From IMG/VR virus record IMGVR_UViG_3300018877_000004, positions 5,500-69,499 of that record: DNA of 64,000 bases. One strand, given 5' to 3'. Source of the stretch: a virus. Positions within the stretch are counted from its first letter, which is position 1; every line of letters starts with the position of its first letter. This document shows, piece by piece, positions 778-58,913 of the stretch. Below the pieces are notes generated by a model. That model saw only the letters and a list, made by a program, of their open reading frames with translations. It had not been told where the DNA came from and did no database searches. Made by a program: the position numbers and the translations under genes.

Positions 778-1653
778 ATGCCAAACTATAACGCAAAATT
801 TACAGAACAACAGAAACCCGATCGATTACGGCATCGACTGCTGAGCAGATCAGAAGAGAGAGCCTTACTAAGGCTGGCACAAAAAGGCGATCGTCGTGCT
901 GTTGCCCTGCTTGTCGAATGCAATCAAAAGTTTGTTGCCCGTATCGCCAGTCGCTATCAGACCCAGGGCAAGCATCTGTCGTTCGATGATTTGATGCAAG
1001 AAGGATCGTTAGGGCTAATTCGTGCGATCGAAAAGTTCGATCTCAGCCAAAACACTCGCTTGCTTACCTACGCCAAGTTGTGGATAAACCAAAAGCTGCA
1101 ACGGGCGATCGCCAAGCAGCAGTACACCATCCGTCAACCTTTCGACACTCGCTACCTGCAATGGCAAATCCAGCAGTTAGCACCTCAACTGCAAGAACAG
1201 GGCTTGCCCGTCACAGTGCAGAACCTCGCAAAACGCTTGCAGGTGCAGGAGAAGCACGTTAAGCGGGCGATCGACCTAAAAGCAATTGATTGTTCGATCA
1301 GCATCGATTGCTTGGATGGCGGCATTCCTGGGCCTGCTCTGCCAGTTGAGGACGATTTCGATCGCGCTGTGATGATTGACCGGATTGAGCGGGCGATCGT
1401 GAATTGCTCCACTGATGACTGTGTGCGGCAAATGGTGCGGATGCGGATCGGACTCGCGACGGGTGAGCCGATGGGATTTCGTGAAATCGCTAGTCGCCTA
1501 AATCGCAGTGTGTCTTGGGCAAATGCCGCATACGTGCGGGCGCTGAAACGAATACAGCCCCAGATTGAGGATTTGCGCGAAGGACGAGAACACATCAAGG
1601 GGAGGCATTTGACGCCCTGCCGCGATCGTAGCCGTGTACAGGAGGTAGCTTAA
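778..1653 (+). CDS. RNA polymerase sigma-70 factor (RpoD/group 2-like)
   Basis: Region 1.2 LLSRSEERAL; region 2 DDLMQEGSLGLIRAIEKFD...TYAKLWINQ; region 4 HTH MGFREIASRLNRS. Confidence 0.92.
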   Translation: MPNYNAKFTEQQKPDRLRHRLLSRSEERALLRLAQKGDRRAVALLVECNQKFVARIASRYQTQGKHLSFDDLMQEGSLGLIRAIEKFDLSQNTRLLTYAKLWINQKLQRAIAKQQYTIRQPFDTRYLQWQIQQLAPQLQEQGLPVTVQNLAKRLQVQEKHVKRAIDLKAIDCSISIDCLDGGIPGPALPVEDDFDRAVMIDRIERAIVNCSTDDCVRQMVRMRIGLATGEPMGFREIASRLNRSVSWANAAYVRALKRIQPQIEDLREGREHIKGRHLTPCRDRSRVQEVA

Positions 1654-5467: not shown

Positions 5468-5736
5468 CTCGATCGCTCTCCGCATCCTCTCACCACAAAA
5501 CATTATGCAAGCCAAAGTCTACAGCCTAGATCAGCATCGAAAGTTGCGCGATAGCATCCCACGCCAGCACCGCCCAGCGATCGCACCTCTGCCCCATCAT
5601 CAGCGGGGCGATCGAGTGGTAGCCCCGCTGATGATGGGGCAGCTTAGTTTATTCGCGCCACATCCCACAGCGCTAGGACGGGGAACGTTTACTCAGCCAA
5701 AACAACACCTACATCAAACACAAAAAGGTTCTAACA

Positions 5737-18323: not shown

Positions 18324-19103
18324 CTATCCAACCGTCTCCAGATCCTCCCAAGCCTTAGCGCGACTGAAGTAAAAGCCCTGCGCGTAATCAACCCCGATCG
18401 ACTTGCAGAGTTGGAGCTGAATATCATTCTCAATCCCCTCAGCAACCGTTTTTAGGCTGAAGACTTTCGCCAGCTTGACGAAGCATTCGTAAATCGCGAT
18501 CGCCCCTTCATCCTTTTGATCAGTCGGCATAAAGAAGCGATCGATTTTCAAAAAGCTAATAATGCCTTGCAAGCTGCTTAGCCGTAGCATTGAAGAATGT
18601 TGAGTGCCAAAGTCATCAATGCCCAATTCTGCCCATTCTGAGAGAGGCATAAGCGCCTGCTGAAGGATGGCTAGATCTCTCGTGGCAACCGCATCTTCCG
18701 TGACTTCAAACTTGATTTTTCCAACAATTTGCAGCCTTAAAAGTGACTCTTTAATCTTTAGGTAAAACTCAGGACTTATTAATTGATTGGGCGATAGATT
18801 TAGGGCGATATATCGATCGTTTTGCATCGCACTTGCCTTCTCGCAGGCTTCTTGGAATACCCACTCAAAAAGCGGTTGCTGCCACAAAAAATCGCTTGCC
18901 CGAAAATCGGCAATTCCTGGTAGAAACGCCGCAGGAAATAGCAAGCCTCGATCGGGGTGCTGCCACCTAATCAGCCCCTCGTAGCCGCTTACAGGTAAAT
19001 CTTCGGACTGTAGGGAAACGATCGGCTGATAGTGCAGCCGCAATTCGTTTTGCTCGATCGCTCTCAAGAGTTCGCGGGCACTGGGTTGCTGGGTTGCGGG
19101 CAT
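18324..19103 (-). CDS. Stand-alone EAL-domain c-di-GMP phosphodiesterase
   Basis: YQPIV, EGLIRW, NLSP, FEVTE, IDDFGT, LKIDR, VAEGIE and AQGFYFS: all canonical catalytic positions appear present. Confidence 0.93.
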   Translation of the reverse strand: MPATQQPSARELLRAIEQNELRLHYQPIVSLQSEDLPVSGYEGLIRWQHPDRGLLFPAAFLPGIADFRASDFLWQQPLFEWVFQEACEKASAMQNDRYIALNLSPNQLISPEFYLKIKESLLRLQIVGKIKFEVTEDAVATRDLAILQQALMPLSEWAELGIDDFGTQHSSMLRLSSLQGIISFLKIDRFFMPTDQKDEGAIAIYECFVKLAKVFSLKTVAEGIENDIQLQLCKSIGVDYAQGFYFSRAKAWEDLETVG

Positions 19104-39633: not shown

Positions 39634-40332
39634 TTAGACGATCGCCGTTGGGTTAACCATTGACGGCTTACCGTTGAAGGCGGCGTCAATATTTCCGGTG
39701 ATGATGCCATCTGCCGGGGCGGATAGCGGCATTGAGGTAATCGACCCTGTACCCTTGTAGACTTTGCCCTTGCTGTAAACAGTCGGGCGAGGATTGGGCA
39801 ACTGCATCCAGAAATAAAGTTGCTGGTAGCCCTCATTAAACCAATGCTCAGCGGTGGCGTAGCCTGCATCGAGAGGCGACCAGTTGCCTTGCATGTTTAA
39901 CCCGATCGAAATCGTTGTGGTGCGCCCGGACTCGTAGGCATCGTCATCAAACGTCACGGTTGTTACTCGGTTACCAGAACGATCAAGGTCGGCAGTGGTA
40001 CGAGCGCGAAGCTTGAGCGGATATTCGACCGTCGAACCTGCCACGATCGCTTCTGGTAGCGGCTTGACTGATAGTGATGTATCTCCGGCATCAGCATCCG
40101 CGTCAAGCTGTACTAGAACCTCATAACCCAGCGCACTAACGGCGTTAATGTAGCTGTCTTTGGGTACAAAGCTGTCCGCAGGCAGTGCAGGCGTAACCGT
40201 GATGGTGGTTGCCCCTTTTGCCGCTGCCGATGCCGTTGCAGTAAATTCAGTCGGCTCTGTTTCGATACCATCGGGAAGCGCAGCGAGCCACAGTTCTACG
40301 CCTTTACCTGTGAAGAAAGGGGTCTTTGCCAT
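39634..40332 (-). CDS. Major tail tube protein with an inserted beta-sandwich segment
   Basis: Position in the operon; C-terminal YKGTGSITS...ADGII...F.GKP tube motif. Confidence 0.75.
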   Translation of the reverse strand: MAKTPFFTGKGVELWLAALPDGIETEPTEFTATASAAAKGATTITVTPALPADSFVPKDSYINAVSALGYEVLVQLDADADAGDTSLSVKPLPEAIVAGSTVEYPLKLRARTTADLDRSGNRVTTVTFDDDAYESGRTTTISIGLNMQGNWSPLDAGYATAEHWFNEGYQQLYFWMQLPNPRPTVYSKGKVYKGTGSITSMPLSAPADGIITGNIDAAFNGKPSMVNPTAIV

Positions 40333-40365
40333 TGCAGAGTCTTTAGAATTAGTTCTGCGGGCAGT

Positions 40366-40373
40366 GTTCCTAT
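40366..40373 (-). promoter_or_regulatory. Late promoter motif ATAGGAAC
   Basis: 34 nt from the tail tube start. Confidence 0.55.
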
Positions 40374-40810
40374 GCTTCTCTCAGCAGAGTTTGAGTAAGA
40401 ACCATCGATAAAATTTCGATATTGCCAAGCTCTACGATCGGGATCTGACGCCGAACGCTGCCACCTTGCAGTGACCATCCAGGCAGCGTGATCATCGTCT
40501 CCAGGATTTTTGATAATGCGCCCAGCGTGTTCTGCTCAGCACTCCACTGTTTCAACAAAATCTGAACCGTGTAAGTTTCCTCGAAAGCATTGCCCATCAA
40601 GGGACGCAGCGGCACATCAGGGCGGAACACAAGCACACACTCTAACCCCTCTGCTTTAGTTCCAACGATTGGGCTGGTGTCGGTTCCCATGCTCAGCACG
40701 ATCGCAGGCGTGGTCTGCCCGTTTGGGAAAACATAGATCCCCAGTTCATCACTCAGCGCTGTCTCGATCGCTGTCCTCAGTCCGATCAGATCCACCTCTT
40801 CCATCACCAA
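40370..40810 (-). CDS. Tail terminator-like protein
   Basis: 146 aa, directly upstream of the tail tube gene. Confidence 0.6.
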   Translation of the reverse strand: MVMEEVDLIGLRTAIETALSDELGIYVFPNGQTTPAIVLSMGTDTSPIVGTKAEGLECVLVFRPDVPLRPLMGNAFEETYTVQILLKQWSAEQNTLGALSKILETMITLPGWSLQGGSVRRQIPIVELGNIEILSMVLTQTLLREA

Positions 40811-40994
40811 GCCTCATAATAATTAGGGATATTGGGCGATCGTCCGCACTGTACTCGATGATTTCTGCTCTGGTTGCCGTCGCCTTGGTAGCAGGTAGCC
40901 CGTCTGCGCCTTCATACCGGACGATCGCATACTTCCCGCCATTGGGTAGCGGATCTTTTTCGGTTGCTTCAATCCGTTCGGTGGTGTCATCCAT
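40749..40994 (-). CDS. Small acidic protein directly after MuF; candidate immunity protein
   Basis: Overlaps the MuF stop; 81 aa; PNGGKYAIVRY...ATRAEIIEY. Confidence 0.55.
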   Translation of the reverse strand: MDDTTERIEATEKDPLPNGGKYAIVRYEGADGLPATKATATRAEIIEYSADDRPISLIIMRLGDGRGGSDRTEDSDRDSAE

Positions 40995-43900
40995 TCGGGT
41001 TGCCTGCGTTCTCGATGTCTTTCAGAATTCGTCTGCGTCTTGCTTCCAGTCGATCGACTGCAATCCCTCGCTTTTGTCCGCGTTCTCTTGCTTCAATTCG
41101 CTTTTGAATTTCTAAATTAACTTCTGATAGTTCACCCTGAAGTGCTGCTAATCGTGCGATTTGGGCTTGCGCCCGATCGACCTCACCCTGTCGTCTGCGC
41201 AGGCGATCGTCTTCTTCTGCCGTCACTCTTGCCGCAACGTCAATCTGAGGGATCTGCAAGAATTCTCGCAACTGCTGATTGTATTGCTCTAGCTGCGATC
41301 GCAAGTCTGTCACGCTCAGGGCGCGACCATCCACCTCATAAATTAGCGCTGCCCCTTGATCGCGTTCACTACGCTGCTGGAGTGCCGTGGCAATGGCAAG
41401 CGCATCTTCAATCTCACGAGCGATCGCTGCTTTGGTCTGTGCTGTTTCCTCAGCAAAGCCATCACGAGCGCGTCGGTACAGTTCAGACTGATCAATGATT
41501 TGGCGCGGGTCAACATTCTCATCAGTTAGAAGCAGGTTGGCAAAGTCTTGGTTGAACTCTGCCAAATCTTCGATCAACTGATTGCCCGATCGCGCTACAT
41601 CGATCGCTCGAATCCGCTCTGGCGTCTTCAAAAGCTGTTGAATCTGGCGATCGCTTAACCTGCCCTCATCCGCCAACTCATCGCGCAACTGCTGCCACTG
41701 AGCGATTTGGGCAGCGGCTTGAGCGGTCGTAGCCTGTGCAAGCTGATCCGGGTAGTCAAGCTGCTTTTGAATCGACTGGATGCGCCCGTTTACCTGTCCG
41801 ACTAGCTTTGCTACTTCGTTGGCGGCAGACTGTAAGCGCTCGTTTGGCGTCTTCCCCGGCTGGCGCTCCAAGACGATCGCCAAATCTGAAGGCATCGCCC
41901 CTTCTTCCCAGTTGCGACTATCCAGCAGCCACGCGACTGATCCGGGACGGAGAGAGGCAAGGATCTGTAGGTTGGTGCGAACGGTTTCGACATCGCGGCT
42001 AACGATCGCTTGCAGGTTGTTAATCGCTGATTGCCGCTGAGTGCTGTAGTTGTCGGATAGCTGCTGTGTGGTGTTAGCACGAACCGCAAGCTGTGAACTC
42101 AATTCAGCGCGTAACTGTCGATACTGCTCAACCCGTTGCGGTAGCTTGCCTTGAGCGTTGCGGGTGCGCCTAATTGCACTGTATCGATCGCGCTGTTCTG
42201 TGGTTAAATCCTGAGTTTTGGTAGGCAGTCCATTCAGGCGTTGCAGCAGATCGTCTAGTTTGTCACGACTAGAATCGAGTCGCGCTGTCAAAATCTCCAG
42301 TGATTCTGCCGCCTGCGATACTTGTCGAATGCGCGGTTCTAAATCTTGGCGGTGCAAGTCTGTCACGCCCACGCCTGTAGACTGTGAGTTCACTGCTGCC
42401 CGCAATCGCTGCAAATCTCGCAACGCCTGCGATTTTTCACTCGATCGCGGCAAGTCCAGTAACTCTTTTTCTGCGGCTTCTAAATCCTGCTTTAAGCCTG
42501 TGATCGATCGTTCTACATCCCGCCGTTCTCCCTCTGTCTGCAAGGATTCGCGGCGAGTGCTGAGGTCGTTTAATGTCCGCTGTAATTCTGCGCTGTTGGT
42601 TCGCAGCTTCATTGCGGTCTGCTCAATGTTCTCGATCGCCTGTAGCTGCTTTGACGCTTGCTTGAGTTGCGCCTTAGCCGCTCGAATCTGCTGCGGTACG
42701 GTCGAGAAGTAGGGCGGATTGAGTGGATTAAGTAGCTGTGCCGCCCGCTGCTCGATCGCTTCGATTTGCGCTTCGACTCGGTTGATCGCCTCCTCTTGGA
42801 TGCGAATTTCCTGAGACGCTTGTTCCTGCTGCACCGCTGTGCGTGGCAAATCCACTCGATCGAGTGCCTGCTGAATTTTCTTGGTGCTGCGTTGCGCTGT
42901 CGCGAGTTCGTTAGCCTGCTCTCGCTGGGTGCGAATACGATCGGCAAGTGTGGCGTTGGCACTGCGCAAGTTTTCAACAATTTGCGGGCTGCGTGTATCC
43001 GGTTGTTGTGGCTCAGCGGATTGAGGTTGAAGGACACCTTTGCGAGGATGGCGATAGTCAAAGATGCGGGCGATCGCTTCGTAGCGGGCGGGCGCAAATT
43101 TCTTTAGATAGTCAGGATTTAAGAAGAACTCTTTCACCGATTCAGCAAAGTCGCGATCGGGTCGGTTCTGATACGCCATGCGCGTCTCTTGCATGGCACG
43201 GGCGTATTCAGAGCGCTCAGGTGGCGTCAGTTGTCCAAACTGCTGATACGCCCTCAGATAGCCAGCTTGCAGCAGCAGATCGTCAATCTTGGCACGTCCT
43301 CCGTAGAGCACGATCGCCCCTTCGTCGAAGGTGACCATGCCATTGACTTTAGGCGTGTTCAGCTTCAGCTTTTTGCGCCAATACTGCTCTGAAGCGTTGC
43401 GCTGTCGAGTGATATAAATGTCGCCACTGCCAAGCGCATTCTCAGGCAAGTCAAGTTCTGCCACCTTGCGCAATAGGTCAAGGGTGGGGCTGTTTTCTCC
43501 TAGTTTGGGGACGTACCAATCGACGCCCTTAAATCGAAAACGATCGAACTGTTCAGCGTCTTTTGCGCCTGGCGGTGTTGCTTCTGCTGTCTCGATCGTG
43601 CCTTGCAACTGCTCGAAAACTGCCTTGCGATAGGCTGCACCTTTCGCCTGTGCAGGCATATCCTGTCGCTTGATTTCATCGATCGCTTGCCGCAGTCGAA
43701 ACTCTGCCAGTCGTGAGGCTCCCCGATCAATCGATCGGGCTTGTTTGTAGAGGTTCCGGGCGATCTTCGTCTCTAGTGCCTGTCGTTCAACGGGTGTCAA
43801 TGGCGCAAGCTCTACGCCTGCTGGCAGCGCCAATCGCGGTAGCTCACCCCGCAGTAGTCCTTTAACGGGTTGTGCTTCAGGTAGTGCCAGCAATGGCTCA

Positions 43901-45939
43901 TATCCTGGTAGTGCTTTTGGTTCTGCTAGCCCCGGCAAGGCTTTCGGATCAGCGCGTCCGGGCAGTAATCCGGCAGCGTTACGGGCAGCAAGAACCTTTT
44001 GCGCGATCGCAGGGGGAAGCAATCGAATCTCGTCAGCACTCAGCAACAGCAGTTGCGGGATCAGTTCGTCAATCTGCCGTGCTAGTACATCGTCGTCAAT
44101 GGTTCGCTCGGTCTTGACAGGTTCAGCCGCTTCGCTCGATCGTTCTTTGCGTGGAATGTCTGTCTTCAGAAATTCTTTGATCGTGGCGACGAATTCCTCA
44201 TCAGGCAAGTACTGCTCTAATGAGTGGTTTTTGACATTGGCAAGTGGAACGCGATTGAGGGCGCTAAGCTGTGCCCACGGATCACCTGTGCCAGCGATCG
44301 TGATGCCCTGCTCTGGCGACATTTCATTGAAGCCGAAATAAGGCGACCCGATCGCAATCACCTTGGCAGTGATGCCCATCTCCTTAAGGATCTCTGCTGC
44401 CTCGAATGCCGTTGCACCGCCCGCGCTGTAGCCGATGATGTTGATCGGCTTGTCAGGATACTTTTGATGAAAAGCATAGGCTTGCGCTGCAACCCTCACG
44501 GATGCCATGTTGCGCCCTTCAACGATCGCAGTCGAAAGGAACTTCGAGAAGATCTGGCTTACCTTGCGAGGTGTGGGCGCACCGCCCGGATCTTCTACAT
44601 CGAATTCGGGAGTGCGTACCCCAATGACGCGATGCTTGGGCAATACGACTTTTTGAAAGTAGTTCGCTAGATAAATGCCTTGCCCGCCCTGCTCACCTGA
44701 AAAACCACCCACGACAAACGTCACCTGCTCATCGTTTTCGCTGGGGTCAGCTTCTACCCCTTTGCGAAACTTTTGCGACAGTTCTTGCGCCATTGTTGCC
44801 GATCGCTTAAACCCTTTGCGATAGCGCGATCGGGCGAGATAGTAGCTGCCGACTGTCGTACCTGCGACCGCTGCCCCAACCGTGAGCGCAATTAGTAGAT
44901 CGTTGTTGACCTGCTCTTGTGGAGTCTGCCGACGCGATCGATCTGTGAGCAGTTGCGCTGCTAGTTTTCCGACTGCCCATTGTTCGCCCTTAACCTGCAC
45001 TGAGCGATCGAGGTAGCCATCGACAGGCGTCCAAACTGGCTTAGGTGGCGAGATATTTGCAGCACGTTCAAAGGGCGCAACATTGCCAGCGGATTGATCT
45101 GTTGTTGTCGCTTTGACTTTTTCAGCGTGTTGCTTAACCCACTCGTTCGCTTTAGGGTCAGACGCCTCCTGTTCAAGGAAGTATGGCGAATTAAAACAAC
45201 GATCGCGCGGATGAATTACAGCAGGCGCAGCATCCACTGGGTAAACGTTGCCAGCACGATCGGCGCAGAATTTGCAGACCCTACGATCTTGCGTGGCGAT
45301 TCTTTGGACATATTGAATCCCGTATTCCTTGTATCTCGATCGAGTGGCTGAGTCTTGCGCCGAAATGATCTCAGTTCGTGCGATCGTCTCTGCTTTGCCT
45401 TTTGTTACACCTAGTCGCTGCCGCAGAAATCCAGCAACTTTTTGCGCCCCCTGCCCTTGAATTAGACCCTGAGTGATAATTACTGACGCTTCTTCACGGA
45501 AGGTCTGATCGTGCTTCTTGAGGCGATCTACTGCATCCCTAGCCGCAAATGCAGCAGCTTCGATCGGTACAGTTGCAGTTGCCTTGATAAAGCTGTCGCC
45601 CTGCTCAAGTGCTACCAACTCATCGCCTAGCGTCGTCCCCTCTTTCGAGGCAGTTGATAGCAACTTTTCATAGCGATCGCGCAACTCCTGCTCACGATCG
45701 GGGTCAATTAATATCAGTTGCGCTTGCAGATCGTTGACCAGAAGAACGCCTCGCTGAGTCGCTAGCAAGTCTGGTTTTGATTTTGCGGTGTAGTTCGGAT
45801 ACCTGCGCAATAAATCAGCTTCGAGCCGTCGATAGGAAGCGTCTAGGGCTGCATAAAGTCGATCGACTTCCGCATCTTCCATGTCTTGAAGAGTGCGATC
45901 GGTTCTTTCGATTAATTGTGCTGCCGCTTCGCCGCTCAC
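40987..45939 (-). CDS. Giant MuF / SPP1 gp7-like minor head protein with alpha/beta-hydrolase, zincin-like and coiled-coil extensions
   Basis: AETIARTE...D.RVCKFC...HPRDRC (MuF); TM segment; INIIGYSAGG nucleophile elbow; DFAESV; long coiled coil. Confidence 0.85.
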   Translation of the reverse strand: MSGEAAAQLIERTDRTLQDMEDAEVDRLYAALDASYRRLEADLLRRYPNYTAKSKPDLLATQRGVLLVNDLQAQLILIDPDREQELRDRYEKLLSTASKEGTTLGDELVALEQGDSFIKATATVPIEAAAFAARDAVDRLKKHDQTFREEASVIITQGLIQGQGAQKVAGFLRQRLGVTKGKAETIARTEIISAQDSATRSRYKEYGIQYVQRIATQDRRVCKFCADRAGNVYPVDAAPAVIHPRDRCFNSPYFLEQEASDPKANEWVKQHAEKVKATTTDQSAGNVAPFERAANISPPKPVWTPVDGYLDRSVQVKGEQWAVGKLAAQLLTDRSRRQTPQEQVNNDLLIALTVGAAVAGTTVGSYYLARSRYRKGFKRSATMAQELSQKFRKGVEADPSENDEQVTFVVGGFSGEQGGQGIYLANYFQKVVLPKHRVIGVRTPEFDVEDPGGAPTPRKVSQIFSKFLSTAIVEGRNMASVRVAAQAYAFHQKYPDKPINIIGYSAGGATAFEAAEILKEMGITAKVIAIGSPYFGFNEMSPEQGITIAGTGDPWAQLSALNRVPLANVKNHSLEQYLPDEEFVATIKEFLKTDIPRKERSSEAAEPVKTERTIDDDVLARQIDELIPQLLLLSADEIRLLPPAIAQKVLAARNAAGLLPGRADPKALPGLAEPKALPGYEPLLALPEAQPVKGLLRGELPRLALPAGVELAPLTPVERQALETKIARNLYKQARSIDRGASRLAEFRLRQAIDEIKRQDMPAQAKGAAYRKAVFEQLQGTIETAEATPPGAKDAEQFDRFRFKGVDWYVPKLGENSPTLDLLRKVAELDLPENALGSGDIYITRQRNASEQYWRKKLKLNTPKVNGMVTFDEGAIVLYGGRAKIDDLLLQAGYLRAYQQFGQLTPPERSEYARAMQETRMAYQNRPDRDFAESVKEFFLNPDYLKKFAPARYEAIARIFDYRHPRKGVLQPQSAEPQQPDTRSPQIVENLRSANATLADRIRTQREQANELATAQRSTKKIQQALDRVDLPRTAVQQEQASQEIRIQEEAINRVEAQIEAIEQRAAQLLNPLNPPYFSTVPQQIRAAKAQLKQASKQLQAIENIEQTAMKLRTNSAELQRTLNDLSTRRESLQTEGERRDVERSITGLKQDLEAAEKELLDLPRSSEKSQALRDLQRLRAAVNSQSTGVGVTDLHRQDLEPRIRQVSQAAESLEILTARLDSSRDKLDDLLQRLNGLPTKTQDLTTEQRDRYSAIRRTRNAQGKLPQRVEQYRQLRAELSSQLAVRANTTQQLSDNYSTQRQSAINNLQAIVSRDVETVRTNLQILASLRPGSVAWLLDSRNWEEGAMPSDLAIVLERQPGKTPNERLQSAANEVAKLVGQVNGRIQSIQKQLDYPDQLAQATTAQAAAQIAQWQQLRDELADEGRLSDRQIQQLLKTPERIRAIDVARSGNQLIEDLAEFNQDFANLLLTDENVDPRQIIDQSELYRRARDGFAEETAQTKAAIAREIEDALAIATALQQRSERDQGAALIYEVDGRALSVTDLRSQLEQYNQQLREFLQIPQIDVAARVTAEEDDRLRRRQGEVDRAQAQIARLAALQGELSEVNLEIQKRIEARERGQKRGIAVDRLEARRRRILKDIENAGNPNG

Positions 45940-46015
45940 TCTTTACCCTAAAAACGCTAAACGAATGGACATCTTGAGTACAAAACGCTACATTTAGCGA
46001 AACTCATTAGTACTT

Positions 46016-46723
46016 TTGATCGTGCCCTCAGTCGCAATTGCCGCCGCTTCGATGCGATCTGCTTCCTCTGTTCGGTCAAGCATTCCTATTGCAAAACTGC
46101 TGAATCGTCACCGCCCGCTTGCATTGAAAATTGCGAGGCGAATGCAGTCGCTTTGTGGTGAACCACTAGAAGACCTAGAGCAACTTGCACTAGTTGGATT
46201 GACCAAAGCCCTTAAGGGATACGATCCGACTTTAGGGCTTAAATTTAGTTCGTTTGCTGTGCCCAGCATTCGCGGAGAAATCATGCATTTTCTGCGCGAT
46301 CATGGGGAGTTAATGAAAGTGCCGCGCCGTGCCCGTGAAACTGCGGCAAGCGTAAAAAAACAGCATCGCCAACTTGTTTCGCAGGGGCTTGATTTTCCGA
46401 TCGTTAAAGTTGCGGCGGCGATGGGGATTAAAGAGGAAGTGTGGAAGTGGCTAGAGGAGGCAACCGCTAGCAAGTCGATCGCCCCACTTGATGAGGAGTG
46501 GCAGCAGTCCGCAGAACCGCAATTTTCAGAAGATCCTGAGCATCAACCCTTGCAAGAAGCGATCGCACGCCTTCCTTTTTTGCAGTACGAAGTCACGATC
46601 GATCGCTATTACTTGGGAATGTCTGATCAGCAGATAGCAACCCACCATGACTTGAGCTTGTCCGAATTAAAGTGCTGTGAGTCTGCCGCCCTAAACGCCC
46701 TCAGAACTGCCCTGGAGTCCTAA
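46016..46723 (+). CDS. Alternative sigma factor, SigF/SigB/FliA-like (cyanobacterial group 3); start may be ATG 46052
   Basis: EPLEDLEQLALVGL.KA...YDP..G.KFSSFAVPSIRGEIMHFLRDH...KVPRR; region 4 HTH. Confidence 0.9.
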   Translation: MIVPSVAIAAASMRSASSVRSSIPIAKLLNRHRPLALKIARRMQSLCGEPLEDLEQLALVGLTKALKGYDPTLGLKFSSFAVPSIRGEIMHFLRDHGELMKVPRRARETAASVKKQHRQLVSQGLDFPIVKVAAAMGIKEEVWKWLEEATASKSIAPLDEEWQQSAEPQFSEDPEHQPLQEAIARLPFLQYEVTIDRYYLGMSDQQIATHHDLSLSELKCCESAALNALRTALES

Positions 46724-50579: not shown

Positions 50580-52157
50580 ATGACCTATAGCTATATTGAC
50601 GAGCGAACAAAGCGGACTCCGCTACCTGACGCCAAGACAGCGCCTTTGCCCTCGACGCATGGGGTAGGTGCGCCTTGCAATGCTTATGAGCAGATGCAGG
50701 GTTGGTGGGATGTAATCGAATCGGTAAAAGCTGGCACTCCTGGTATTCGCAAGGGCGGCAAATCATTTCTACCGATCGAGCCTTTTGAGCGAGAAGACGC
50801 CTACGGACGCAGGCTAGGGCGATCGTGCTTTGCGCCTTGGTACGTGCGCTTAGTTCGTGGCGTGGTCGGCATGGTGCTACGCAAGCCGATCGCACTCCAG
50901 GACGTTGTTCCTGCGATCGAGTCTCACCTCGACAACATTAACCTGCTAGGAGACGACCTCAACTCATTTGCGCGTGAGGTATTTGAGGCAGCGATCGATT
51001 TTGGTTATACCGGGATCTTTGTGAATTATCCCAAGGTTGAAGAGGGAGACGTTCGCACTCGTGCCGATGAGGTGGAAAGAGGCTATCGCCCTTACTGGGT
51101 GCATTACACTGCACCTGAGATTATTGGATGGCGTTACAGCACGATCGGCAATCGACGCGTATTTACTCAGCTACGCATCCGCGAAAACTCGATCGAGCCT
51201 ATGGGTGAGTTTGGAGAAGCAGAAGTCGAGCGGATTAAAGTCTATGACCTGTATGAGGGTCGCTGTCGTTATCGACTCTTTCAGGAGATCGACGGCAACT
51301 GGATGCAGGTGGGGGACGATGGTTTTCTATCACTGCCTTATATTCCATTTACCTTTATCTATACGGACAAGAAGCGAGAATCAGTCACCCGTCCGCCGAT
51401 GCTGGAGGTCGCCTATCTCAACATCAACCATTTTCAATTGTCGTCTGATCTCAACCATAGTTTGCACATCACTGCTCATCCTAAGCTTGTTCTGTACGGC
51501 TACAACACCGATCAAGGTGATGTGGTTGTGGGTGCAGATGAGGCACTGGTATTTGACAACCCAGATGGACGCGCAGAGTGGATTGCACCGCCCCCAACCT
51601 CGTTTGATGGCCTCAACAGCCGCATTGACAAGCTAGAGCAGCAGATGGCAATGCTAGGACTGTCTACGCTGGTTGGTCAGAAGAATGTAGGTGAGTCGGC
51701 AGAGGCGAAAAAGCTCGATCGAGTGCAGGGTGACAGCATCATGAGCGTTATTGCTCAAGGGTTGCAAGATGCGTTCGATCTTTGTCTAGAGTTCCACGCT
51801 GCCTACATGAACCAGCCAGCAGGCACTTGTCAGGTCAATCGCGACTTTGACGTGGCAGAGTTGACGCCACAAGCGATCGATGCCTTTAGCCGTTTGCACA
51901 GCGCCAGTCAGATCAGCCTAGAAACACTGCTAACGCTGCTGAAAAAAGGCGAAATATTTGACGATGAGTTTGACATTGAAGAAGAGATCGCCAAGTTGGA
52001 GTCTGAATTCAAACGACAGGCTGCGCCCGTGCCAAGTGACACTAATACGGTCGATGTGAATGCGATTCCACTTAGCCAACGGCAGTTGATTCAGCAAGAG
52101 GATTCGATCGCAAATCTGGAGCAAATGAATGGTAGGAACCCTGCGGGCGAAGTATAA
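50580..52157 (+). CDS. Portal protein (DUF4055-like)
   Basis: After terL; YGRRL, NINHFQLSSD and ESAEAK motifs. Confidence 0.88.
   Translation: MTYSYIDERTKRTPLPDAKTAPLPSTHGVGAPCNAYEQMQGWWDVIESVKAGTPGIRKGGKSFLPIEPFEREDAYGRRLGRSCFAPWYVRLVRGVVGMVLRKPIALQDVVPAIESHLDNINLLGDDLNSFAREVFEAAIDFGYTGIFVNYPKVEEGDVRTRADEVERGYRPYWVHYTAPEIIGWRYSTIGNRRVFTQLRIRENSIEPMGEFGEAEVERIKVYDLYEGRCRYRLFQEIDGNWMQVGDDGFLSLPYIPFTFIYTDKKRESVTRPPMLEVAYLNINHFQLSSDLNHSLHITAHPKLVLYGYNTDQGDVVVGADEALVFDNPDGRAEWIAPPPTSFDGLNSRIDKLEQQMAMLGLSTLVGQKNVGESAEAKKLDRVQGDSIMSVIAQGLQDAFDLCLEFHAAYMNQPAGTCQVNRDFDVAELTPQAIDAFSRLHSASQISLETLLTLLKKGEIFDDEFDIEEEIAKLESEFKRQAAPVPSDTNTVDVNAIPLSQRQLIQQEDSIANLEQMNGRNPAGEV
52132..52139 (+). promoter_or_regulatory. 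Late promoter motif GTAGGAAC
   Basis: 35 nt before the scaffold ATG at 52174. Confidence 0.6.
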
Positions 52158-55523: not shown

Positions 55524-58500
55524 ATGGTTTGGACTGTCACAAGAAGCCCTACAACCGGAAACGGCACAATCACACTGCAAGCAGACGGCACGACCAGCGA
55601 GAACCTGTCCGTCTTGCTAGCTCAGGGCGTGACAGCAGGACTAGTAGGGCTATCAAACCCTACACCGGGAGTCTATCAAACCGAACCAGGAACCATCCTT
55701 GAAGTTCGTGGTGCTACAGGCGACACCACAACTTGGCTTTATCAAGACTGCGATCTAATTTGCCTGCATTATTTCTATCTGAGAAATAATGCAAGATTTC
55801 GCCCAGAAACCAAGAACAAGGCAGGCTTAAAAGTTAAGCGGCCTAGCTTTGTCCTCTCCGCCCAACCCTACAACTATTTTGATGGTGCTGGAATTTTCTC
55901 CAGGACTCAAGGCGGCGTGATGCTAGCCGAGAACTGGGATTTTATGATGCGAGCGCCGGGGGGATTAGATAGTTACATGGATGGGGGCGCGATTTTTGAT
56001 GAAGGATTAAGCCCTGATTGTTTGGCGTCCTACAAGGGCTGTACTTTTACGTGTGACGCTAATCAATATTCTGGCGGAATCTACTATCTTGGCTTTCCGA
56101 TCGTCGCCGGAGGTGCAACGTTTTCAGATTGCCGATTCCTTGGGTTTCCTTCACTCGAAACTGCAAACACTGCACCACTTCTCAATATCTTGCTAGAGCT
56201 GTGTGCTGGAATCAAAAATCGAGATCCGGGCAATTACGTGATCGATCGATTTCGATTTATTGATTGTGGGACTGAGATTACTGCAAGAAATGGCGGGCAA
56301 TGGCGAGCGATCGATTGCTTGGTGACTCCTACTCAGCACGTTATTGAAAATGATTGCTCTATTGTTTTATCGAACTCGGTCGAGTTTTTAGGGTCACCCG
56401 CAGAAGCAAACGGCATTATTTATCTTCAGAATCCTACAACCAACGTCGATCGCCGCAGAATTACAAGTAGCAGTGGTAAAGTATCTGGCGGAAACTCCAC
56501 TGGTGCTAGCGTTGCGGTCAACAGCGATCGGATTTGTGTCGATGTTTTTAGCCGCAGCCGTGGAGCTAGCAATGGAGGAGGAGACACTAGCGGTACTCTA
56601 ACCTCGATCGACCTGCGATCGGGCGAATTCAAAGCGGTGTTTGCAAAATACGGTAGAGAACCGCAGGCTTTTAGCTTCATCCTTTCAGGACAGATAGAAT
56701 CGGCGCAGGTTGTGCCGTTCATCTCTGCCATTGACACCCAAATCACGCAAACCAATGCTGCAACAGTAGCCGCCTACACTGGGTTTGTCGTCAATTACAG
56801 CACTCAATTAGTCACGCGATCGAGTGGCACAGAGGCGCAGCTTTACGACTGGTTGGCACTAGAAAAAGCCAGCCTTGACAGTAGCGGGGTTGTCGTGAAC
56901 GGGCTGACTCTGCCCAAGTGCGCCCTTCCAACCTTGGCTACGACCATTTACGATCGCGTCTCTGGCGCTTTTGCCTACAACCTGAGAATTGTAGGATCAG
57001 ACTTCTTAACAGGTGGTCGCACGATCGCGATGGCATCAGGGCGAACATTGACCTTTGCCACAGCCGCCAATCATTCTGCTGTCAAGATTGCCATTCCTGC
57101 TACGGGAATCGTGCATTTTGAGCAGGGCGGAGTCGCAACGCTGAACGGTACATTTGCCGCAGGTGCAACGATTAACAATGGCTCTGCTTCTGCCCTCACT
57201 GTTCTTGTGGATGAATCGCAAAAAGCCAACATCACTACCACATCGACCGGGGGCGGATCGATCACGGTAATCAGTCAAACAACGCTGAACTTCACAGGGA
57301 TTATTGCCGGATCTACGATCGGAATCCTCAACAATTCAGGCGTGTTGATTGATTCTGCGATCGTCCCTGGAACGACCTACAGCTTGACACTGACCTACCC
57401 AGGAGCGCTGCTGTATTCGGTGCGAGTTCGTAAGTACGGGAGCAACGTATTTGCAAACTCGTTCACACTTGCACCAGGAACGCTTTCAATCAATATCAAC
57501 CAAGCAGTCGATCCTTTTGTAGTGCTGTCTGAGTCGGCAGCAGGAGCGCTAACGGGGATTGCTATCAACTACGGTTCAAGCCTGACTACAGTTTCAGCCA
57601 ATCGAACTCTTAGCCAACTCTACGACTATGCTCGTTGGAGTATTTCGCAGTTAAGCAACATTGACAAGACAAACCCCGCAATTGCCACAACTGACGGGGT
57701 GATTCGATCGCTTAACTACAATTTATCTCTAACAGGAACTTCGACCATTACCGGAACTGGAACGCTAGCAGTTGGAAGTAGAACACTGTTTCTGGGTGCG
57801 GCGCAGACCTACAGCTTTGATGCAACGGTTGGCGCGACAGGCAAAGTTTCTGTAGTCAATGGAACCACGACCCTATCGATCGCTTCCTACGCGAGTGGGG
57901 CGAAATTCGACAACTCTACAGCAACAGCCGCGATCGTCCAAGTCCCCTATGCTGAGTTGGCGAACGCTACAGCATTAACGCCAACAGCGGGCGGAGGAAG
58001 CGTTACACCGCGATCGATCCCTGTGACCTTTACCGGATTCCCCACCGCAGCGAATGCTAACGGGCGATCGGCTGATGCGACATTTGGCGTACAGGACGTG
58101 AGTTCTGATGTTTGGCATACTTACGATGCTTCTAGCGGGTCTGTCGTCATTTCCCTGAGTGAGTTGGCGACTGCACCTGACTATCAGTTAGTCGTGATGG
58201 CAGATGCGATGGGATGGGTTCGGACACCGGATACCACGATCGCTGCTGACTACTCAGGGACATTCGATTTCTCGAATTTGTTCAGAGAAATTGTTGACGA
58301 GAATGGCGATCCAATGGTTGGCCTGGGCACTCAATCAGCGATCGATAAAATCACCTATGACCAAGCATCAGGGCGCTTTGAAGCCGACGAAGGGGCGATC
58401 GACTTCTACTCGGTGCTAGACAAGAAAGAAATCCTAACCAGTTCACAGCTTGGCTTGACAATTTTCAATTCCGCACTTGTGCGACAACTGAATTTCATTA

Positions 58501-58913
58501 AAAATGCCTACGCCAATTTGATTCAAATTCCCAGCCCGCTAACCGTTGCAGCGTCCACAACTGCGACCGCATCGCCTATCTTGACTGATTTTGTGGTGAT
58601 GCGGACGGGCGATCCGACTGCGGATGTGTTTGTGCATGGACTGCCAAGCACAGCGCCCGGACTGAGCGATCGACCTGAGATTCGCATGGGTACAACCAAA
58701 TTCATCTCGTCTTCTGCCAGCGGTGGATCGGGTGGGTCAGGCCCAACAGCCGCTCAGATTCGGCAGGAGATGGATGCCAACAGCAAGCTTGCGACAGTCG
58801 CGACCCAGACAGCAAGAGTGGATGCCCTGATTGAAAACAGCGGCGGCGATCGATTTAAAGCGAAGACGCTCGAAGCTGTTATCGAGCAAGCAAATAAACC
58901 AGTTATCAAGTAA
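55524..58913 (+). CDS. Large virion fibre/spike protein (1129 aa)
   Basis: Thr/Gly/Ser-rich beta protein; beta-helix-like N-terminus; internally duplicated module; GPTAAQIRQEMD C-terminal motif. Confidence 0.7.
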   Translation: MVWTVTRSPTTGNGTITLQADGTTSENLSVLLAQGVTAGLVGLSNPTPGVYQTEPGTILEVRGATGDTTTWLYQDCDLICLHYFYLRNNARFRPETKNKAGLKVKRPSFVLSAQPYNYFDGAGIFSRTQGGVMLAENWDFMMRAPGGLDSYMDGGAIFDEGLSPDCLASYKGCTFTCDANQYSGGIYYLGFPIVAGGATFSDCRFLGFPSLETANTAPLLNILLELCAGIKNRDPGNYVIDRFRFIDCGTEITARNGGQWRAIDCLVTPTQHVIENDCSIVLSNSVEFLGSPAEANGIIYLQNPTTNVDRRRITSSSGKVSGGNSTGASVAVNSDRICVDVFSRSRGASNGGGDTSGTLTSIDLRSGEFKAVFAKYGREPQAFSFILSGQIESAQVVPFISAIDTQITQTNAATVAAYTGFVVNYSTQLVTRSSGTEAQLYDWLALEKASLDSSGVVVNGLTLPKCALPTLATTIYDRVSGAFAYNLRIVGSDFLTGGRTIAMASGRTLTFATAANHSAVKIAIPATGIVHFEQGGVATLNGTFAAGATINNGSASALTVLVDESQKANITTTSTGGGSITVISQTTLNFTGIIAGSTIGILNNSGVLIDSAIVPGTTYSLTLTYPGALLYSVRVRKYGSNVFANSFTLAPGTLSININQAVDPFVVLSESAAGALTGIAINYGSSLTTVSANRTLSQLYDYARWSISQLSNIDKTNPAIATTDGVIRSLNYNLSLTGTSTITGTGTLAVGSRTLFLGAAQTYSFDATVGATGKVSVVNGTTTLSIASYASGAKFDNSTATAAIVQVPYAELANATALTPTAGGGSVTPRSIPVTFTGFPTAANANGRSADATFGVQDVSSDVWHTYDASSGSVVISLSELATAPDYQLVVMADAMGWVRTPDTTIAADYSGTFDFSNLFREIVDENGDPMVGLGTQSAIDKITYDQASGRFEADEGAIDFYSVLDKKEILTSSQLGLTIFNSALVRQLNFIKNAYANLIQIPSPLTVAASTTATASPILTDFVVMRTGDPTADVFVHGLPSTAPGLSDRPEIRMGTTKFISSSASGGSGGSGPTAAQIRQEMDANSKLATVATQTARVDALIENSGGDRFKAKTLEAVIEQANKPVIK

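Follow-up and report, generated by a model that had tools for sequence, protein, structure and literature searches.

Background

Little is understood of how the DNA of tailed phages passes across envelopes of the Gram-negative type, above all those of cyanobacteria. Virion-borne wall hydrolases are well known, T5 Pb2 being a tape measure with a wall-degrading domain; to our knowledge, virion-borne lipid hydrolases of tailed phages are not well known. Here we describe a giant gene encoding a 1650-amino-acid (aa) head protein of the MuF family, together with the small gene that follows it, in a window of 64,000 nucleotides (positions 5,500 to 69,499 of the IMG/VR virus record IMGVR_UViG_3300018877_000004; the record is linear, 69,499 bp long and estimated to be 88% complete). 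Coordinates given without a locus are those of the window. The virus is a siphophage of filamentous cyanobacteria. We lean, though not strongly, towards the view that the giant protein is packaged into the virion, held there by its MuF domain and ejected at infection, so that a helix-tethered esterase is placed on the host membrane during genome delivery.

MuF fusions have been described as injected effectors in the main text of Iyer 2017 (PMC5512222), and MuF proteins with toxin cargo as a polymorphic toxin family (Jamet 2017, PMC5576092; Zhang 2012, PMC3482391). The words lipase, esterase and "hydrolase fold" do not occur in the main texts of Iyer 2017 and Jamet 2017, and the one supplement of the latter has no lipase, no esterase, no abhydrolase and a single unrelated "hydrolase". 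The available text of Zhang 2012 ties the lipase-like Tox-ABhydrolase-1 to baseplate modules of the type VI secretion system (T6SS), not to MuF. The available text of the Lipocone paper describes lipid-directed Lipocone toxins with MuF domains, and thus lipid-targeting MuF cargo has a precedent, although of a different fold. Literature searches for tape measure or minor head proteins with a lipase, esterase, cutinase or phospholipase returned nothing on the module considered here. Within the literature searched the architecture was not found described, in line with what an earlier note on this DNA had supposed from the sequence alone, while MuF-fused virion cargo itself is already known.

The hydrolase domain and its putative tether

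The giant gene (40987..45939, minus strand) is a single open frame of 1650 codons with a GTG start, preceded by AGGG 8 nt 5' of it, and a TGA stop. The product consists, in this order, of a MuF domain, a hydrophobic helix, a lid-less alpha/beta hydrolase, a linker, a zincin fold lacking HExxH, and a segmented coiled coil. A full-length search found seven relatives of 1650-2572 aa with 36-97% identity, all containing MuF, and the alignment of the eight sequences shows conserved blocks along the whole length.

The hydrolase domain spans residues 396-600 (44140..44754, minus strand). The AlphaFold2 model of residues 395-640, built from 28 sequences, has a predicted local distance difference test score (pLDDT) of 84.3 and a predicted template modelling score of 0.80. 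In the model, the elements of the active site are in the canonical order. The oxyanion-type GGF (residues 411-413, within GGFSG, 411-415; 44695-44709) follows the first strand; the nucleophile elbow with Ser505 in GYSAGG (codon 44425-44427; GYSAG, 503-507, at 44419-44433) follows the strand 499-504; Asp553 (codon 44281-44283; GDPW, 552-555, at 44275-44286) follows 545-550; and His572 (codon 44224-44226; NHSL, 571-574, at 44218-44229) follows 563-566. Ser, Asp and His are invariant in all eight sequences of the family alignment. The hydrophobic helix, the GGF, GYSAG, GDPW and NHSL motifs and the (A/L)LP repeats all lie where the earlier note had placed them.

The structural neighbours found by Foldseek (E from 1e-6 to 1e-4) include Lip_vut1 and LipA of B. 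subtilis (both about 1e-6), TesA, type II thioesterases and cutinases. Alignment with VIA-align gives Z from 14.9 to 13.5 for all 50 listed entries, with 154-185 residues aligned; examples are the lipase 6nkc (Z 14.9, root mean square deviation, rmsd, 2.7 over 155 residues), TesA (14.8), cutinases (about 14.4) and acyl-protein thioesterases (about 14). At the level of the model, the alpha/beta hydrolase that had been proposed from the motifs is confirmed in its fold and in the order of the triad residues, and its neighbours are all small lid-less esterases; the modelled fold leaves the substrate unspecified. The domain sequence yields only weak matches at the elbow in the PDB. The top one, a cysteine synthase with E 0.0014, was judged spurious.

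A hydrophobic Gly/Ala-rich helix at residues 348-369 (44833..44898, minus strand) precedes the hydrolase and is followed by a conserved linker, YYLARSRYRKGFKRSATMA. It is the top 19-residue Kyte-Doolittle window of the protein, with a mean of 1.59, and is conserved in the family. With a threshold of 1.4 for the same measure, 107 of 250 hydrolase copies have a hydrophobic segment in the 75 residues before them, compared to 72 of 741 windows drawn at random from these proteins. Thus an upstream hydrophobic segment is enriched, though not universal. The linker motif, written as a strict regular expression, matched in 12 of the 250 copies; this pattern was too narrow and was dropped.

Spread of the hydrolase module

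Residues 395-640 were searched against all 1.84 billion representative sequences. Matches were found in 308 clusters at E <= 1e-3, in 158 at E <= 1e-10 and in 34 at E <= 1e-30. Most proteins of the 150 clusters listed are 800-6800 aa long and match in 2-4 stretches. In an alignment of 272 copies from 157 proteins, Ser is present in 219 copies (Gly in 29), Asp in 249 and His in 235. Of 301 genomes sampled from the cyanobacterial phylum, four contain a match at E <= 1e-6, each in an open frame of 1647-2790 aa. The 69.5-kb virus record itself has one copy, in the MuF protein, and none in its 1729-aa tape measure.

A Pfam scan of 26 carriers showed MuF in three, the tape measure domain TMP_3 in two (one with GH19 and one with Peptidase_M23), LRAT in two and DnaJ in one. 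The hydrolase copies in these carriers are nearest to DUF676, Palm_thioest, Lipase_3, PGAP1, Tle3 and Cutinase; the relatives reach DUF676, Palm_thioest and Lipase_3 mainly through summed scores of multiple copies. Among 12 carriers longer than 2900 aa, 11 are TMP_3 tape measures, two of these with M23. In total, 13 of the 38 scanned carriers are tape measures, three with Peptidase_M23 and one with GH19, and in all 13 every hydrolase copy is N-terminal to TMP_3. As a separate observation, the carriers P0025, P0032, P0023, P0048 and P0028 contain LRAT (NlpC/P60-type acyltransferase/phospholipase) or DnaJ domains, and one of them has a weak match to PI3_PI4_kinase.

The sole match in an isolated phage at E <= 1e-5 is gp048 of Aphanizomenon phage vB_AphaS-CL131, a "hypothetical protein" of 1811 aa. 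BLASTP resolves it into three units, each formed by a hydrophobic helix, a linker of the form Y..R..YR.GF..SA.MA and a hydrolase; the copies are 29-32% identical, and the third has Gly at the position of the nucleophile. CsCl-purified virions of CL131 were analyzed by liquid chromatography with tandem mass spectrometry (PMC6293099), and Table S5 of that paper lists ORF_048 with 105 peptides, 175 peptide-spectrum matches and 54.6% coverage. Therefore the hydrolase module is an experimentally proven virion component in one cyanosiphophage. Among the carriers, virion proteomics exists for gp048 only, which outside the module is unrelated to the giant MuF protein. The suggestion that the latter is a virion-carried, membrane-directed esterase has held up as the best reading, given the occurrence of the module in tape measures and the detection of gp048 in virions.

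The same enzyme might act in the cytoplasm. As an early takeover effector of the "polyvalent protein" kind, it would have the activity of a thioesterase or deacylase, with acyl carriers, acylated proteins or an ester involved in defence as its substrate, and the other domains would bind host factors. Consistent with this, MuF fusions figure among injected effectors, as cited above; type II thioesterases, TesA and acyl-protein thioesterases are among the structural neighbours; Thioesterase is the best Pfam alpha/beta match in the giant protein (25.3 against a cut-off of 26.4, others scoring 17.9 against 22 and 20.7 against 25.8); and effector-like inserts are seen in relatives, with a weak ART-PolyVal match in P0013 and LRAT and DnaJ domains in other carriers. 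However, a hydrophobic helix stands just before the module here and in many carriers, tape measures combine the module with domains that degrade the envelope, and we can name no known cytoplasmic target. Thus we consider such an effector unlikely.

The MuF domain and orthologous loci

The N-terminal 300 residues (45040..45939, minus strand) form a MuF, or SPP1-gp7-like, head domain, assigned by Pfam, PHROG and the family alignment. The PF04233 match covers residues 155-248 and scores 39.0 bits against a cut-off of 29.6, which makes the protein a member of the family and bears out the 1650-aa MuF head protein of the earlier note. This core contains a C222-C225-H243-C248 motif. Of the 17 PHROG families matched, 14 are classed under "head and packaging"; phrog_115 ("minor head protein", E 7.6e-26) is the best match. 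The MuF block is conserved in the eight-sequence alignment, and a hidden Markov model (HMM) of our own finds MuF in 17 of 158 proteins. The relatives are named "SPP1 gp7 family putative phage head morphogenesis protein" or "minor capsid protein" in the databases; the domain structure described here corrects the annotation of those currently filed just as "minor capsid protein".

Homologous genes were compared in several loci. L004 and L006 have an identical table of open reading frames (ORFs) and lie within a 218-kb contig of a metagenome-assembled genome of Kastovskya adunca; since this contig is cyanobacterial, they represent a prophage. Their 1645-aa gene is in the classical place of MuF, with a 485-aa ORF ahead of it and scaffold-like and Phage_cap_E capsid genes behind it. 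The 485-aa ORF occupies the position of the portal and has no family match. L003 has a 2159-aa version of the giant gene. L002 (10001-15446) and L005 (10001-14949) carry close relatives from one metagenome, 96% and 90% identical, in which the giant gene is broken into 2 to 7 frames; these could be sequencing indels or decaying copies.

In P0015 (2434 aa), an intein-like insertion at about 250-626 splits MuF right after the HP.DRC motif. The Intein_splicing match (E 1.5e-5) is below its cut-off, and the MuF HMM matches in two pieces.

In other cyanobacterial phages and prophages the same MuF domain has short or different extensions, the proteins being 318, 502, 871 and at least 403 aa long, and none of these contains the hydrolase, middle or C-terminal blocks. 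The C-terminus of the giant family is conserved rather than polymorphic.

The zincin-fold domain and the coiled coil

The hydrolase is followed by a variable, acidic, Pro/Leu-rich linker at residues 601-714 (43798..44139, minus strand), with LLPP, ALPG and ALP repeats at residues 640-706. In the relatives this region varies in length and contains KGLL-type repeats or extra domains instead.

Residues 715-975 (43015..43797, minus strand) are predicted to form a zincin-fold pseudo-enzyme domain. The AlphaFold2 model, built from 13 sequences, has pLDDT 87.6 and shows a zincin fold with the active-site helix beside the edge strand. The top Foldseek neighbours are the catalytic domain of anthrax lethal factor (LF) and PPEP-1/2/3 (E from 3e-4 to 4e-3, probability 1.00). 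VIA-align ranks PPEP-3 first (Z 10.3, rmsd 3.4 over 166 residues), followed by LF (9.8) and the MtfA-like 3dl1 (8.4); the metal-free N-terminal domain of LF (8.3) and Certhrax (7.8) come lower, and the first 45 rows form one clade. A Z of about 10 is moderate support for the modelled zincin fold. Relatives have weak matches to the last 65 positions of the Peptidase_M90 profile, P0007 with 27.1 bits against a cut-off of 26.2 and P0004 and P0005 below it.

However, the HExxH motif is absent from this domain in all 13 family members, and thus it is a pseudo-enzyme and not a zinc peptidase: the zincin-like segment of the earlier note stands as to its fold, whereas the metal-binding signature is missing. 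The would-be active-site helix 885-901 reads RQxGYLxAY instead, while the helix DFA[DE]SV..FF at 930-939 is retained in the family. With our own HMMs, the middle and C-terminal blocks are confined to MuF-bearing members (14 and 13-14 of 158 proteins, respectively). No relatives of the middle domain were found outside the family among proteins of 907-2888 aa, where all five matches are to family members. The best matches of the middle domain in BFVD (E 8.8e-8 and 2.3e-6) are phage "minor capsid protein" entries whose aligned part is not specified.

Two other assignments of the middle domain were rejected. It is not a second MuF-like domain, as hhalign gives a probability of 0.24% for the MuF block against the middle block. 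Nor is it an ADP-ribosyltransferase, as the weak ART-PolyVal match lies in an insertion of about 185 aa found only in P0013. The latter is the protein of locus L003 (9998-16477); the insertion, at residues 1113-1298, is inside the zincin-fold domain, and the match (E 0.0017) is below the cut-off. It may be extra ADP-ribosyltransferase cargo in this one relative. In another relative, P0007 (2572 aa), the hydrolase is present three times and the zincin-fold domain twice.

Residues 985-1650 (40990..42987, minus strand), conserved in 13-14 MuF-bearing relatives, are taken as an extended, segmented coiled coil on the basis of their heptad pattern. Proline-free 28-residue windows with a strong heptad pattern cover 43% of this region, whereas 100 shuffles gave 2% on average and 10% at most. 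The heptads are in eight stretches of 28-65 residues, split by conserved proline-containing motifs. Thus the strong heptad signal of the coiled coil of about 650 aa that had been noticed is there, but it comes in eight separate stretches. The C-terminus has no solved or named relative in PDB, PHROG or the protein atlas. In the PDB the whole-family profile finds only coiled-coil noise, namely sigma-1 and syntaxin, and a match to SbcC-like PHROGs (3e-4) was likewise counted as noise.

The 81-aa protein

The small gene (40749..40994, minus strand) encodes an acidic protein of 81 aa. It is translationally coupled to the giant gene, with an overlap of 8 nt, and starts 8 nt before the end of the latter's TGA, as ATGGATGA. 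The isoelectric point (pI) of the product is 4.43, which agrees with the acidic ORF noticed earlier; that of the middle domain of the giant protein is 9.5. The conserved core comprises residues 1-64. The acidic tail, which the distant homologues of L003 and L004 lack, is encoded by a stretch (40749-40810, minus strand) shared, in another frame, with the start of the next gene.

A homologue comes immediately behind the giant gene in L002 (94% identity), L005 (86%), L003 (44%) and L004/L006 (46%). The genes downstream in L004/L006 encode scaffold and capsid rather than tail proteins, and therefore the small gene goes along with the giant one. Searching with a profile gave a family of 26 small proteins (55-81 aa) without any Pfam domain, and in the protein atlas the 81-aa protein matches unnamed clusters at 0.90. 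Equal sizes of the longest contig (93060, 10568, 67419, 35277 and 22729), and sizes alone, suggest that five small proteins share contigs with five of the seven giant relatives; the same matching showed no counterpart for P0007 and P0003. A homologue of the small gene did not turn up in the 16.8-kb stretch of CL131 around gp048 (L001).

A complex was predicted for residues 335-975 of the giant protein (helix, hydrolase, linker and zincin fold; eight-row alignment) and the 81-aa protein (five-row alignment). The interface score ipSAE is 0.83, 0.84 and 0.84, and the best of three controls gave 0.00. The pLDDT of the partner is 76-77, and the contacts of different runs agree by at least 83%. In a calibration, 116 of 157 solved complexes and 2 of 215 mismatched pairs attained this level, although this is only a rough guide here, because our own alignments were used. 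All confident predicted contacts are on the zincin-fold domain, at residues 848-872 (with the strand 865-871), 887-904 (in the would-be active-site helix) and 922-929, and none is on the hydrolase. Strand 52-64 of the partner pairs with the edge strand of the zincin fold. By analogy, the groove that it occupies would be the one where zincins hold their substrates. Thus the model supports binding of the 81-aa protein to the dead zincin cleft.

These data bear on the suggestion of the earlier note that the pair is a polymorphic toxin with its immunity gene. The esterase would then kill competitors by way of phage particles, and the 81-aa protein would protect the lysogen. Several observations fit: the very different extensions of MuF N-termini in related cyanobacterial phages and prophages (318, 502 and 871 aa versus 1645-2572 aa for whole proteins), the small conserved gene that is always adjacent and predicted to bind the giant protein, and the temperate context, with a serine recombinase in the window and L006 inside a 218-kb cyanobacterial contig. 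However, the support for this explanation is poor, since the enzyme is internal and the C-terminal part that comes after it, about 1000 residues in length, is conserved in 13-14 clusters. Moreover, the small protein is predicted to dock on the zincin fold (848-929) and not on the hydrolase, no counterpart of the small gene turned up in the stretch around gp048, the module in tape measures stands beside wall-degrading domains, which points to entry rather than competition, and the toxin lists in the main text and supplement of Jamet 2017 (PMC5576092) have no lipase or esterase. The immunity function assigned to the small gene is not supported, and a toxin of this kind is quite unlikely.

Genome context

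The genome is siphophage-like. The plus strand encodes a sigma factor, the large terminase, the portal, a scaffold and the major capsid protein. On the minus strand, the giant and small genes are followed by a 146-aa gene, the major tail protein, the 1729-aa tape measure and tail genes; further minus-strand genes encode an endolysin, an HNH endonuclease, RNase H and an EAL protein. The left part of the window contains a serine recombinase, a D5-type primase and a helicase. The DNA of 40000-46500 has no similarity match in 50,697 phage records.

A late role in the producing cell, either as a lysis-helping, LysB-like esterase of outer-membrane or other lipids or as a serine peptidase of head maturation, with the MuF fusion being incidental, is very unlikely: the alpha/beta fold does include S9/S33 peptidases (with a weak Hydrolase_4 match, E 0.16), phrog_595, "head maturation protease", does match the MuF part, neither a prohead protease nor a spanin was recognised in scans of the window, and the hydrolase has cutinase-like neighbours, which presumably resemble LysB-type enzymes of mycobacteriophages, but the phrog_595 match is limited to residues 121-283 of the MuF region, the best neighbours are esterases and not peptidases, the window encodes an endolysin and an M23 peptidase separately, and repeated fusion to two ejected virion proteins, together with detection in virions, ill fits a soluble lysis enzyme.

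The gene that follows the small one (40370..40810, minus strand) encodes about 144-146 aa; its possible starts are TTG at 40810, GTG at 40807 and ATG at 40804. It has homologues in L002-L006, is conserved beside the gene for the major tail protein and matches nothing in Pfam or PHROG. The EAL protein (18324-19103, minus strand; Pfam EAL, E 3.4e-47), at the end of the late/lysis region, is likely a phosphodiesterase of cyclic di-GMP, judging from the domain match. Two sigma-70-like factors are encoded at 778-1653 (plus strand; Sigma70_r2, E 1.3e-16) and 46016-46723 (plus strand; phrog_351, E 1.6e-24), the latter divergent from the giant gene across a 76-bp gap. An ORF of 1129 aa at 55524-58913 (plus strand), after the head genes, has no match in Pfam or PHROG.

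Discussion

The reading that we favour, a packaged and ejected head protein with a membrane-directed esterase, may be put as follows. The MuF part would bring few copies of the protein into the capsid at the portal. At infection, the giant protein would be ejected through the tail, with the DNA or just before it. The Gly/Ala-rich helix would insert in the host membrane, and the esterase tethered to it would cut ester bonds, either in envelope lipids or in lipid anchors, which may ease the passage of DNA or disturb the membrane early. The dead zincin domain would be a binding module, holding the 81-aa protein in the former substrate cleft as a strand-pairing pseudo-substrate. Thus the 81-aa protein would probably be an assembly chaperone or latch, and not an anti-lipase immunity protein. 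The coiled coil would serve as an extended spacer.

A number of observations weigh against this scheme. A protein of 184 kDa would need unfolded passage through the tail tube, and we infer the presence in the virion and the ejection of the giant MuF protein from its relatives. The hydropathy of the helix, 1.59, is just borderline, and 143 of the 250 module copies have no upstream segment above the threshold. The portal gene is at 50580-52157 on the plus strand, whereas the MuF gene is detached from it, on the opposite strand, and heads the tail genes. The complex is a prediction from shallow alignments of eight and five rows, and the run covered residues 335-975 of the giant protein only. Finally, none of the named Pfam alpha/beta families reaches its cut-off in the giant protein, and the structural neighbours of the hydrolase span lipases, cutinases, thioesterases and dienelactone hydrolases. 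As no specific family is reached and the neighbours are diverse, the lipid substrate is suggested by the tether and the family names.

A more general, and more tentative, proposal is that helix-tethered lid-less esterase cassettes are an unrecognised class of membrane-attacking enzymes in the ejected proteins of cyanophages, be these MuF proteins, tape measures or gp048-like proteins, and that they are the lipid counterpart of the peptidoglycan hydrolases of tape measures. In the MuF carriers, the dead LF/PPEP-like domain would hold the 81-aa protein as a latch or chaperone controlling packaging or release. We would give this proposal, taken as a whole, clearly less than an even chance. In any case, a recurring, triad-bearing module in two kinds of ejected protein is a concrete candidate for a membrane-breaching enzyme, and a dead protease fold with a small partner offers a hypothesis of how a large membrane-active cargo may be restrained during assembly.

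Comparison with known systems

The giant protein shares with gp7 of SPP1 and gpF of Mu (PF04233) its N-terminal 300 residues, which match above the cut-off, and the L004/L006 orthologue precedes the scaffold and capsid genes, as is classical for MuF, and follows the 485-aa ORF that stands in the portal position without a family match. However, it is five times longer, with four further modules, and the gene in the window is detached from the portal gene, on the other strand.

The MuF polymorphic toxins, as presented in the main text and one supplement of Jamet 2017 (PMC5576092) and in the available text of Zhang 2012 (PMC3482391), are similar in the MuF N-terminus, the enzymatic cargo, the small adjacent gene and the temperate context. 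In contrast to them, the cargo of the giant protein is internal (the hydrolase at 396-600 of 1650) and its C-terminus is conserved (715-1650, in 13-14 relatives); alpha/beta hydrolase cargo is unlisted in these parts of Jamet 2017, and the small protein is predicted to sit on another domain than the enzyme.

Protein gp048 of CL131 has three units of helix, linker and hydrolase and is proven in virions. It differs from the giant protein in lacking MuF, the zincin-fold domain and a matching C-terminus, and its gene adjoins the tape-measure gene. Tape measures with wall-degrading domains (M23, lysozyme-like) are also ejected virion proteins carrying envelope-attacking enzymes, but the carrier here is a MuF head protein, and the predicted chemistry is hydrolysis of esters, not of peptidoglycan.

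The Tle effectors of T6SS with their Tli immunity proteins, and Tox-ABhydrolase-1, are GxSxG alpha/beta hydrolases injected by a phage-tail-like machine against membranes, and some copies of the module weakly match Tle3 of Pfam. However, the Tle3 matches are below or near the cut-off and in other proteins, delivery here would be by the virion, and no lipase immunity protein is evident.

The zincins LF, PPEP-1 and MtfA share the fold of the middle domain (Z 10.3-8.3), and its DFA[DE]SV..FF helix resembles the C-terminal part of Peptidase_M90. The difference is that the middle domain has no HExxH, and that its predicted ligand is a phage-encoded protein of 81 aa. Closest in this respect is the N-terminal domain of LF (1jky, Z 8.3), which serves binding only and also lacks the metal site. 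Finally, as regards the polyvalent proteins (Iyer 2017), in which several effector domains are joined in one polypeptide encoded among virion genes, the giant protein is multi-domain and lies among virion genes, but just one of its domains is likely an active enzyme, and MuF is the only hub domain of that family detected in it.

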